A stretch of 59,795 nt of DNA from an uncultured Candidatus Saccharibacteria bacterium (GTDB taxonomy: Bacteria; Patescibacteriota; Minisyncoccia; Minisyncoccales; GWA2-38-27), in assembly GCA_964391095.1 (NCBI GenBank), contig CAYMJA010000001.1, forward strand, positions 1 through 59,795, written 5' to 3'. Position 1 is the stretch's first letter. Each line of letters opens with the position of its first letter. Shown one piece after another: positions 158-1,872 of this stretch. The position numbers and the translations under genes were made by a program. The notes beneath the pieces are model-generated. The model ran no database searches and had not been told where the DNA came from. It was given only the letters and a program-made list of their open reading frames with translations.

Positions 158-192
158 ATAAAAAATCGGCAGACCTATATGGGTCTGCCGAT
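158..192 (-). terminator. Rho-independent terminator after rpmG
   Basis: 11-bp perfect stem ATCGGCAGACC/GGTCTGCCGAT (165-175 / 182-192), followed on the minus strand by a T-run. Confidence 0.75.
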
Positions 193-219
193 TTAAGCTG
201 TTTTTACCGTGTTTATGTG

Positions 220-378
220 CTATTTCGTCTCTTTGTGCAGGGTATGTCGCCTGCACCATTTGCAGAATTTTTTCAATTCTAACTTCTCCTCAACTGATTC
301 TTTTGATTTGTGAGTAAAATAATTTATTCTTTTACACTCCTGGCACTGAAGTTTTACAAAAGCTTTTCTTTTTGCCAT
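220..378 (-). CDS. rpmG: 50S ribosomal protein L33 (52 aa, below ORF-track cutoff)
   Basis: Manual translation gives MAKRKAFVKLQCQECKRINYFTHKSKESVEEKLELKKFCKWCRRHTLHKETK, with two CxxC pairs (zinc-ribbon L33). A terminator follows. Confidence 0.85.
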   Translation of the reverse strand: MAKRKAFVKLQCQECKRINYFTHKSKESVEEKLELKKFCKWCRRHTLHKETK

Positions 379-381
379 ATG

Positions 382-456
382 AGCCTAGAGGCGGAGTTGC
401 ACCGCCGACCTCGTCTTTACCAAAGACGTGCTCTAACTAAACTGAGCTATCTAGGC
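382..456 (-). tRNA. tRNA-Thr (anticodon GGT)
   Basis: Cloverleaf read by hand: acceptor GCCTAGA/TCTAGGC, anticodon loop TTGGTAA, T-loop region GGTGCAACTCC. CCA is not encoded. Confidence 0.85.
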
Positions 457-1053
457 ATATTTATTTTCTGATACCATTTTAATCATCTTATCTATTTGTT
501 TTTTAAGTTTAGTATTATTGAATTCCATTATTAACACTCCCGTCATACTTTTCTTCTTGTATGTCCCTTTTCCTCTAGGTTTCAAAGAAGTAATTGAACC
601 TATTTGGCTTTTAGTAAGTTCAAGTGCTCTTGTCCAAAAGTTTATCGCTTTATTTTTATCTGCATCGTTAAATAAAAGTAAACTATATTTCAATTTTTCT
701 TGTTTAATTTCACATATCTTAATTAAAAATTCACGGAATAATCTTATAAGATTTGGGTCAGAATTACCCAACCTTACAGCAGTTTTACTATTTTTATTCC
801 CTTCTCCCCAAAAAATACCCAATCCTAAAGCCTTAAGTTCTACTTCTTTTAAGTTTAATTTCTTTTTAATTTTAAATGGATCGCCGTCAGGATTATATTT
901 AATATAGTTGGCTTCACTACGATTTCTTCTTGGGATATTATATCTATTTATCCAATAAGTTATCTGGTGATAACTCCAACTTGTCCTATCAGAAATTTCT
1001 TGCATTGACAGCCCCTTTTTATATAATTTTTCTAATTTCTTTTTTGGCAACAT
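451..1053 (-). CDS. HTH plus LAGLIDADG-like (homing-endonuclease-like) protein, 200 aa
   Basis: N-terminal HTH-like segment (LSMQEISDRTSWSYHQITYWINRYNI). A LAGLIDADG-like motif (LGLGIFWGEGNK) is followed by V.LGNSD..LI..F..FL, as in single-motif LAGLIDADG folds. The ORF sits exactly between two tRNA genes. Confidence 0.5.
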   Translation of the reverse strand: MLPKKKLEKLYKKGLSMQEISDRTSWSYHQITYWINRYNIPRRNRSEANYIKYNPDGDPFKIKKKLNLKEVELKALGLGIFWGEGNKNSKTAVRLGNSDPNLIRLFREFLIKICEIKQEKLKYSLLLFNDADKNKAINFWTRALELTKSQIGSITSLKPRGKGTYKKKSMTGVLIMEFNNTKLKKQIDKMIKMVSENKYA

Positions 1054-1138
1054 TGGGTGCGGTCGGAGTCGAACCGACGGGGCCTAAATAGACGACTGTT
1101 TTACAGACAGATCCCACCCCCTATGGGACTACGCACCC
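1054..1138 (-). tRNA. tRNA-Tyr (anticodon GTA), long variable arm
   Basis: Acceptor GGGTGCG/CGCACCC, anticodon loop CTGTAAA, long variable arm, T-arm GTCGG-TTCGACT-CCGAC. Confidence 0.85.
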
Positions 1139-1197
1139 TCTAATTGTTTACCTATCTCATACCACAAAAATTATTATTTTTCAATCCTTCGATGAAC

Positions 1198-1872
1198 TCA
1201 GGACGAGATGATTGTTCGGTGTTTTTTCCGCCACTCTTCAATTTTTTTATGGTTGCCGGATAATAAAACTTTTGGAACCTTCCAGTTCGTTCTCATTCTC
1301 GGAGAAAATATTTCCGGCCTTGTGTACTGAGGATATTCAATAAAACCTCTTTGCTTGGTGATTCTCTCTTTTAGAAGTTGGGGTTTCCCTAAAACGCCGG
1401 GAATTAATCTTGCCATTGTTTCCATCACTACCATAGCCGGCAATTCCCCACCCATAAGAACATAGTTCCCTATTGATAATTCAATATCAGCAATATATTT
1501 TGCTACTCTTTCATCCACCCCTTCATATCTGCCGCAAATTAAAATCATTTGATCTAATTTGCTGAATTGATAAGCCATTTTTTGATTGAACTTTCTGCCG
1601 CGAGGAGTAAATAAAATAACTTTAGTTTTTCTTTTTTTCCCTTTTTGAAGATCGCTTACGGCTTTGAAGATTGGCTCTATTTTCATAACCATCCCGAGTC
1701 CCCCGCCGAAAGGGCGATCATCAACGGTTTTATGTTTATCAGAAGTCCAATTTCTTAAACTGTGAATGTTGACTTTTATTAATTTTTTTTTCTGAGCACG
1801 GGCAATTAAGCTCTCAGATAAATAAGAATTAAAAATCTCAGGGAAAATTGTAATGATATCAAATTTTATCAT
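1198..1872 (-). CDS. trmD: tRNA (guanine37-N1)-methyltransferase TrmD
   Basis: MIKFDIITIFPE...DDRPFGGGLGMVMK, typical TrmD SPOUT motifs. Confidence 0.95.
   Translation of the reverse strand: MIKFDIITIFPEIFNSYLSESLIARAQKKKLIKVNIHSLRNWTSDKHKTVDDRPFGGGLGMVMKIEPIFKAVSDLQKGKKRKTKVILFTPRGRKFNQKMAYQFSKLDQMILICGRYEGVDERVAKYIADIELSIGNYVLMGGELPAMVVMETMARLIPGVLGKPQLLKERITKQRGFIEYPQYTRPEIFSPRMRTNWKVPKVLLSGNHKKIEEWRKKHRTIISS

Follow-up and report, generated by a model that had tools for sequence, protein, structure and literature searches.

Why should a protein-coding gene begin on the first base past one transfer RNA (tRNA) gene and end inside the next? This question is raised by an open reading frame (ORF) of 200 amino acids (aa) in contig CAYMJA010000001.1 of assembly GCA_964391095.1. 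The whole stretch analyzed is 59,795 nt long and is here called the window; the genome that holds it is labeled G000. As judged from its sequence, the ORF is intact and belongs to a large protein family of the Patescibacteria (Candidate Phyla Radiation, CPR) that has no name. The family is built from a helix-turn-helix (HTH) and a domain of ~135 aa that carries one invariant acidic residue. Throughout the family, the anchor is the tRNA gene that lies downstream. For this clade, that gene is tRNA-Thr(GGU); sister clades adjoin other tRNAs. The ORF is probably a free-standing selfish gene of the homing-endonuclease type, belonging to a clade that is specific for the 5' boundary of tRNA-Thr(GGU).

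Four genes define the locus. In the order in which they would be transcribed, these are:

1054-1138, minus strand: tRNA-Tyr(GUA), class II, 85 nt, no encoded CCA, discriminator base A1054
1053-451, minus strand: the 200-aa ORF, with its ATG at 1053-1051 and its TAG at 453-451
382-456, minus strand: tRNA-Thr(GGU), Rfam tRNA 62 bits, no encoded CCA, discriminator base U382
220-378, minus strand: rpmG (ribosomal protein L33), ATG at 378-376, Pfam Ribosomal_L33 8e-20

The initial annotation of this DNA had described an ORF fitted exactly between the two tRNAs, with rpmG starting 3 nt further on, and here every coordinate was confirmed to the base. The ATG opens on the first base past discriminator A1054, with zero gap. 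The TAG (451-453) makes up nt 4-6 of tRNA-Thr. The ATG of rpmG follows discriminator U382 after 3 nt (CAU).

Is the ORF a gene at all? The public gene call (P0001, 184 aa) places its start at M17 rather than at ATG 1053. M17, which has an AAGGGG upstream, was considered as the true start and rejected. It is not conserved among the homologs, while helix 1 of the HTH, which precedes it, is; ATG 1053 is therefore taken to be the real start. The ORF keeps all 33 residues that are invariant in its clade (the Thr clade), whose invariants in the alignment include NPxGDPF, GxGxxWGEG, NxD and GKGTYKKK, and its ratio of nonsynonymous to synonymous divergence (dN/dS) is 0.13 between the orthologs of genomes G005 and G029 (NG86). 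By these measures, it is a real gene under purifying selection. It is also the single copy of the family in G000, where no extra copies or remnants of it were found. Its GC content is 28.5%, against 35.1% for the genome, and its GC content at third codon positions is 24%, against 35% in trmD.

Homologs number at least 244 close and at least 813 distant (counted as superfamily clusters), all from Patescibacteria. None of these belongs to a named family, the HTH is the only Pfam domain in them, and no description of the family was found in the literature on tRNA-adjacent LAGLIDADG or homing-endonuclease genes in CPR.

The protein has three parts that matter to the argument:

943..1044, minus strand: N-terminal three-helix HTH, aa 4-37 (Pfam HTH_23, E 1e-4, below cut-off)
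454..870, minus strand: C-terminal domain of ~135 aa, aa 62-200, the putative catalytic domain
793..852, minus strand: helix with a LAGLIDADG-like motif, aa 68-87, ...LKALGLGIFWGEGNK

The HTH, whose helices are H4-12, H17-24 and H28-37 in the AlphaFold (AF2) model, also gives a PDB profile match to the repeated HTH protein 2lvs (E 7e-5). In the same model (pLDDT 89), the C-domain is a long helix ending in YWGEG, followed by beta-alpha-beta-alpha-beta-beta-alpha. A second, independent model was made for a paralog from the Met clade that is 22% identical to the window protein. Both models have a pLDDT of 89, and both have one architecture: HTH, linker, long helix to YWxEG, and C-domain. Besides the HTH, the family has a ~135-aa domain with an invariant YWxEG...NSDP. 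Across the superfamily, only E84, G85, N97, W140 and G172 are invariant.

Where do the relatives of such a gene sit? Superfamily members are found in 33 of 61 related genomes, in up to five copies each; close orthologs of the ORF itself are found in 4 of the 37 genomes of the same family (G000 and three others). About 28 of 30 superfamily loci in the relatives lie directly 5' of a tRNA on the same strand. The contexts, upstream/downstream, are Tyr/Thr, Phe/Gly, x/Ile-UAU, x/Ala-GGC, x/Gln, Met/Met, Pro/Gly, x/Arg, x/Trp and x/Thr-UGU. A tree of 27 paralogs explains their 12 tRNA identities by 11 changes, the minimum possible. The stop codon falls exactly on tRNA nt 8-10 in 10 of the 30 loci, and one base further in for two more. 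A TAG stands at nt 8-10 because the conserved U8-A9-G10 of the tRNA doubles as a stop codon.

For the Thr clade, a phylum-wide scan of one genome per species gave at least 548 relatives, and placement was judged on the best 80 of these, 79 of them evaluable. Here, 76 of 79 loci adjoin tRNA-Thr(GGU), and a TAG at tRNA nt 8-10 is the commonest ending. As a control, 12 of 427 long ORFs in G000 (2.8%) end within -45 to +100 nt of the 5' end of a tRNA on the same strand. Set against this figure, the arrangement of ORF and tRNA is not chance.

The upstream side behaves differently. The upstream neighbor of the Thr-clade loci is tRNA-Tyr in 30 (one miscalled as Phe, as in the window) and tRNA-Thr-UGU in 8; the remaining loci have no upstream tRNA within 400 nt, and the upstream gap overall runs from 0 to about 1500 nt. 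An ATG 0-2 nt past tRNA-Tyr occurs only in the window and in four genomes (L002/L062 in G005, L003/L063 in G029, L007 in G020, and L064). The fit between both tRNAs is thus two different things: the tRNA-Thr anchor is clade-wide, but the exact tRNA-Tyr fit is confined to a few close relatives. Nor do the relatives all carry the gene in a non-tRNA context; they are, like the ORF, tRNA-adjacent.

The tRNA-Thr(GGU) genes of the clade have a peculiarity of their own. About 20 of the 76 carry an intron of ~200 nt in the anticodon loop, inserted right after the anticodon (L069, L076, L104, L105, L118, L119, L124, L127, L130, L136, L138 and others). The inserts have a common ...GAATCCCGAAUUACGGUUAA... 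block. The genes that bear them are overlooked by ARAGORN and by Rfam at the gathering threshold, and at that threshold no Rfam intron family was matched by the insert in 18 loci. The ORF in L076 was considered as intron-encoded; this was rejected, as it instead reads through the 5' half of the tRNA into the intron.

The same niche holds other genes. On IMG/VR viral contigs of 45-500 kb, ten distant family members (L187-L196) are placed within tRNA gene arrays or next to them; their identity is 20-30%, and they retain YWGEG and NSDP. For L188, L189, L190 and L194, the closest tRNA gene runs on the other strand, mostly with the tail of the ORF overlapping it. In related genomes, canonical ORFs of 330-363 aa, with an HTH and a double LAGLIDADG_3 domain over the Pfam cut-off, adjoin tRNA-Ser or tRNA-Asp (L174, L175, L177, L178, L179, L181, L182, L184), directly 5' of the tRNA. 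Several of these read into or through the tRNA, and one begins 5 nt past tRNA-Met. They resemble the present family in having the HTH first, in lying directly 5' of a tRNA, and in often reading into it. They differ in their length (about 340-360 aa) and in having two canonical motifs, where the present family has one atypical YWxEG; the predicted order of strands and helices is also different.

Is the gene dispensable? The order Tyr-Thr-rpmG-Trp is conserved across the host family, which allows occupied and empty sites to be compared. The Tyr-Thr interval is occupied by the ORF in G000, G005 and G029, by a zinc-ribbon-extended form in G030, and by a chimeric form in G020. In 14 genomes the site is empty, with only 3-15 nt between the two tRNA genes; among these are congeners from g6 (G032), g19 (G018, G035) and g22 (G036, G021), genera that also have occupied genomes. 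In nine genomes the interval measures 41-166 nt. In G027, the 166-nt spacer has an ATG one base past tRNA-Tyr, and what it encodes corresponds to the last ~50 residues of the ORF (tblastn 1e-6). Internal stop codons are found in 5 of ~50 superfamily matches. The chimera in G020 (L007, G020:C2:49745-50527) is 270 aa long and has its ATG directly past tRNA-Tyr, at the Tyr-Thr site. Its first ~55 aa are a Thr-clade N-terminus, fused in frame to a complete member of another clade, one otherwise found 5' of tRNA-Tyr (L006). The suggestion that a free-standing gene had invaded a spacer within a tRNA operon is borne out to this extent: empty sites, the G027 remnant, and the same tRNA context in relatives make the gene dispensable and apparently mobile.

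Some longer spacers have another content. Tyr-Thr spacers of 118-166 nt at L144, L157, L160, L164 and L169 hold no remnant of the ORF. They contain a long AT-rich palindrome (ATAAAACTTTAATACC...GGTATTTAAAGTTTTAT) and then a GC-rich stretch; in L157, L160 and L164, the 3' end of tRNA-Tyr is repeated where that stretch closes.

Did the gene travel together with its tRNA? The tRNA-Thr alleles of types C/D include all five occupied alleles and that of the G027 remnant; 0 of 17 type A/B alleles are occupied. These types cut across genera, and the type of G000 is also found in G030, an occupied genome of a different genus. Between G029 and its congener G035, identity is 84.5% in the upstream flank, 100% in tRNA-Tyr, 72.6% in tRNA-Thr and 87% in rpmG. 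The tRNA-Thr of G029 resembles that of G005, an occupied genome of another genus. Synonymous divergence (dS) between G005 and G029 is 0.67-0.72 for the ORF, 1.4 for rpmG and 1.7 for a KH-domain gene, by the simple NG86 method on AT-biased genes; for trmD it was not computable, presumably because it is saturated. In the protein tree, G000 groups with G030 (SH-aLRT 89), and the rpmG and def of G030 are the most divergent of the host family. The allele types, the drop in identity at tRNA-Thr, the low dS of the ORF, and its low GC are no more than suggestive of horizontal spread with co-conversion. Combined, the signs favor repeated gain with co-conversion of tRNA-Thr, then decay and loss; none of them is proof of homing.

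Is the C-domain LAGLIDADG, as had been proposed? Pfam, PDB sequence and fold searches, and a profile comparison of the C-domain, were all without a significant match to this fold. Scans of the window ORF against Pfam, NCBIfam and PHROGs for LAGLIDADG returned only HTH matches, and a PDB sequence profile search found HTH proteins only. Matches to a PHROG called "HNH endonuclease" were set aside, as they cover only the HTH region (aa 4-51 and 8-84). On 17 diverse paralogs, the three libraries likewise gave only HTH matches, and Pfam no LAGLIDADG above cut-off. One paralog matched LAGLIDADG_3 at E 0.005, below the Pfam cut-off.

Some weak likeness is present nonetheless. One acidic residue and a Gly (E84-G85) stand at the end of helix 68-84, invariant in the superfamily, which is a LAGLIDADG-like trait; the motif exceeds the canonical length by two residues. 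Set beside the alpha-beta-beta-alpha-beta-beta-alpha core, the models have a helix to EG, a very short beta1, beta2 and alpha2, with an extra helix and strand after beta3. Foldseek against BFVD gave several LAGLIDADG phage endonucleases, weakly (E about 0.01-0.02, probability 0.89-0.93). The full-length profile is colinear with those of tRNA-adjacent true LAGLIDADG proteins through the HTH and the motif (87%, E 4e-6), much of that score being due to the HTH. IspF and OmpA-like domains, the top Foldseek matches in the PDB, are topological look-alikes and were not taken as homology. The motif, with its Glu-Gly at the end of a helix, and the architecture fit a strongly derived LAGLIDADG domain without demonstrating it; a different fold is equally possible.

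If the ORF is a homing-endonuclease-type gene, how would it spread? In a genome that lacks the ORF, the protein would recognize the Tyr-Thr junction or the tRNA-Thr gene, and would cut at the junction so recognized. Recombinational repair from an occupied copy would then introduce the ORF and, along with it, the neighboring tRNA-Thr allele. In G000, where it fills the Tyr-Thr spacer completely, the ORF would be transcribed within the tRNA-Tyr/ORF/tRNA-Thr/rpmG unit. We infer the nuclease activity, the cleavage site and the homing, as we do leaderless initiation and the involvement of transfer-messenger RNA (tmRNA) discussed below.

Several results weigh against this reading. Foldseek searches of the PDB with the two models gave nothing below E 0.01 (best 0.012-0.03), and no LAGLIDADG structure among the top 50. 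In hhalign comparisons, the C-domain aligned with LAGLIDADG_1 ORFs of related CPR genomes over 3 columns ("GEG"), not significantly; with CPR LAGLIDADG_3, the motif and the next strand and helix line up (P 0.007, 5% probability), again not significantly; and with the tRNA-adjacent LAGLIDADG groups there was no significant match. This last kind of test is a weak one, because even the positive control, a comparison of LAGLIDADG_1 with LAGLIDADG_3, gave no more than 55%. As no nuclease family or fold is recognized, the label "endonuclease" rests on context, on one invariant Glu, and on the weak BFVD matches. On the side of transfer, the simplicity of the dS method counts here as well. Between genera, the ORF protein is ~60% identical, a value that host proteins show as well; for much of the distribution, vertical descent combined with frequent loss is therefore possible. 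The tRNA-Thr types differ between the empty congeners G035 and G018; the locus therefore recombines even without the ORF. Finally, an empty Tyr-Thr junction from the same species had 0 matches in metagenome contigs.

These points are, in part, those that recommend a different view, in which the ORF is a domesticated HTH regulator that the host keeps to control or protect the tRNA/rpmG operon; like WhiA, it might have come from an endonuclease. Vertical descent and repeated loss would then account for its distribution. Purifying selection is indeed strong, and identity between genera is like that of host proteins, but the GC and dS of the ORF are below those of the flanking genes. The family is phylum-wide, at a fixed position, in a single copy per site; yet the ORF is absent from most genomes of its own family, including congeners with intact empty sites, decayed copies exist, and a genome can hold up to five paralogs at different tRNAs. 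Members in the tRNA gene arrays of viral contigs are likewise hard to place under this view. The lack of a recognizable nuclease fold speaks for a regulator; the invariant Glu-Gly and Asn suggest catalysis. The regulator is regarded as unlikely.

A new site-specific insertion element, whose transposase- or integrase-like protein inserts its own gene at tRNA 5' ends without repair-based homing, is quite unlikely. Placement at the 5' ends of many different tRNAs is precise, as such an element would require; the upstream boundary, however, varies from 0 to 1500 nt, and the insert is essentially the ORF only, with no terminal repeats, target duplications or non-coding ends at the boundaries. The HTH is of the resolvase/transposase kind (HTH_7, HTH_23 and HTH_Tnp_1 matches) and the catalytic fold matches nothing known, but family searches found no DDE, serine or tyrosine recombinase signature. 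That the linked tRNA-Thr allele moves with the ORF fits co-conversion mediated by repair.

A role at the level of RNA is very unlikely. Here, a protein made from the 5' leader of a pre-tRNA would have the neighboring tRNA or pre-tRNA as its target (for processing, modification or cleavage), not DNA. Each clade is strictly linked to one tRNA species, the ORF is physically part of the pre-tRNA, and many Thr-clade loci adjoin an intron-containing tRNA-Thr. Against this stand an HTH of the DNA-binding type, the maturation of the same tRNAs without the protein in most genomes, canonical DNA homing endonucleases at equivalent sites, and family searches that gave no match to an RNA-binding or RNase family. 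Last, an ORF that is there by chance or in decay, functionless in G000, would suit the odd start and stop contexts but is hardly credible for one that has full length, all 33 clade-invariant residues, a dN/dS of 0.13 in its clade, and a confident AF2 model.

Returning to the ORF as a probable homing-endonuclease-type gene, how would it be expressed from such a place? The flanks of the unit hold the following:

1198-1872, minus strand: trmD
1139-1197: spacer between trmD and tRNA-Tyr, 59 nt, with a weak promoter-like TTGAAA-17-TGGTATGAG
1156..1184, minus strand: candidate promoter of the tRNA-Tyr operon, TTGAAA, 17-nt spacer, TGG-TATGAG (extended -10-like), read by eye
163-194, minus strand: strong intrinsic terminator, 13-bp stem then T-run, which closes the tRNA-Tyr/ORF/tRNA-Thr/rpmG unit

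The promoter assignment is a weak one; the consensus scan missed the candidate because its second hexamer ends in G.

Cleavage after A1054 would give an mRNA that begins with AUG. Translation of the ORF most likely starts on such a leaderless mRNA, made by tRNA 3' processing; the conservation of the ATG-at-tRNA-Tyr geometry in four other genomes argues for this. In G000, 36 of 39 tRNAs are without an encoded CCA. A 253-aa metallo-beta-lactamase is RNase Z-like: it aligns with positions 1-124 of the RNase Z model, scoring below cut-off. RNase P RNA (122 bits) and tmRNA are both present.

At the other end, a cut by RNase P at G456 would remove the UAG at 453-451 and leave a non-stop mRNA. The same would happen to the stop at nt 8-10 in most of the rest of the clade. 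There would therefore be competition between maturation of the tRNA and expression of the ORF, and little of the protein would be made. Released protein would come only from transcripts translated before the 5' maturation of tRNA-Thr, a plausible way to hold a nuclease at low levels.

The initial annotation had noted the missing Shine-Dalgarno (SD) sequences and had proposed essentially leaderless mRNAs. The SD is indeed absent. This is, however, ordinary for a genome that barely uses SD: SD-like cores precede 52 of 423 long ORFs in G000 (12%), against 42 of 423 (10%) in a control window, which is no enrichment. Further, full processing would yield a non-stop mRNA, not simply a leaderless one. 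The 3-nt spacing before rpmG is no separate oddity either, but the extreme of a family-wide habit; in relatives, the spacer between tRNA-Thr and rpmG is about 19-26 nt and AT-rich.

The upstream tRNA needs a word, as its automatic label is wrong. Folding gives 1054-1138 a cloverleaf with a long variable arm. ARAGORN labels it Phe(aaa), a register error: the anticodon loop CUGUAAA gives GUA, and the orthologs at L002, L003 and L007 are called Tyr(gta). The best Rfam model for it is tRNA-Sec, below threshold. With these two labels, automatic annotation of G000 may lack a tRNA-Tyr.

A side observation concerns the DNA downstream of rpmG. At a distance of 0.7-1.2 kb past the full gene, its 3' end recurs as short in-frame remnants (aa ~30-52, 60-85% identity), at G000:C10:1467-1526, G017:C2:70723-70788, G020:C2:51813-51872 and G035:C5 (three copies). 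That of G000 lies directly upstream of tRNA-Trp, on a contig (C10) other than that of the window. Just upstream of it are a tyrosine-recombinase-like ORF (10-918) and a 100-aa HTH/NUMOD3-like ORF (1046-1348). The remnants suggest a duplication of the rpmG end by insertions that enter between this gene and tRNA-Trp.

A wider proposal can be put forward, tentatively and as the less likely outcome. Here, the superfamily would be a phylum-wide, previously undescribed group of tRNA-gene-specific homing endonucleases, in CPR and in viral tRNA arrays. The catalytic domain would have a nuclease fold that is new, or else be a LAGLIDADG diverged beyond recognition. Each clade would be adapted to a single tRNA gene, at its 5' boundary. 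Expression would be gated by tRNA maturation, with RNase Z making the leaderless start, RNase P deleting the stop, and late-translated copies passing to tmRNA. If this were true, the boundaries of tRNA genes would join ribosomal RNA (rRNA) introns and inteins as a major niche of selfish nucleases in CPR. It would also explain why tRNA alleles at the Tyr-Thr locus cross genus lines. Further, it would offer hundreds of natural, compact proteins (about 200 aa) whose DNA targets are long and conserved and whose catalytic domain is unclassified.

How does this compare with systems already known? Phage T4 has, within its cluster of tRNA genes, a free-standing homing endonuclease of the GIY-YIG type, SegB (PMC2330249). 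Its nuclease activity has been shown by experiment, and it is inherited preferentially with neighboring tRNA genes (PMC2330249). Like it, the present gene is a free-standing ORF between tRNA genes, and distant viral members of its family also lie in tRNA arrays. SegB differs in its GIY-YIG fold, in being phage-borne, in not abutting a tRNA 5' end, and in having no start or stop codon in common with tRNAs.

Closer in host are the single-domain LAGLIDADG homing endonucleases of rRNA insertions in CPR, such as I-ShaI, in a paper that makes no mention of tRNA (PMC11270868). These come from the same phylum; they too are small, patchy in distribution, directed at conserved RNA genes, and divided into clades that are each specific for an insertion site. 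They differ in being encoded by introns or insertions in rRNA genes, in having no HTH, and in being recognized by the Pfam models LAGLIDADG_1/2/3, none of which matches the present C-domain.

WhiA is the model for the domesticated alternative, as it joins an HTH to a LAGLIDADG-like scaffold. It has two degenerate LAGLIDADG domains and a C-terminal HTH, and it occupies a conserved housekeeping locus that is neither linked to tRNA nor patchy. The present family differs from this regulator (discussed in PMC3384342) in all three respects: the position of the HTH, the link to tRNA, and the patchiness.

The last comparison is with the tRNA punctuation of mitochondria. There, coding regions are butted against tRNAs, and RNase P and RNase Z make the ends of the mRNAs; these mRNAs are leaderless, and their stop codons are not fully contained in them. 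We know of no polyadenylation here that could complete a stop codon, unlike in mitochondria. No description of this family was found in the literature on bacterial tRNA punctuation. The likeness is one of geometry only: an ORF butted against tRNAs, with a stop codon that would fall outside the processed mRNA. Animal mitochondrial transcripts are reviewed in PMC3790967; the present case is bacterial, and involves rpmG and one probable selfish gene. With the first base of its mRNA following one tRNA, and its stop codon lying inside the next, the ORF is thus a concrete bacterial case in which mitochondria-like tRNA punctuation can be tested.

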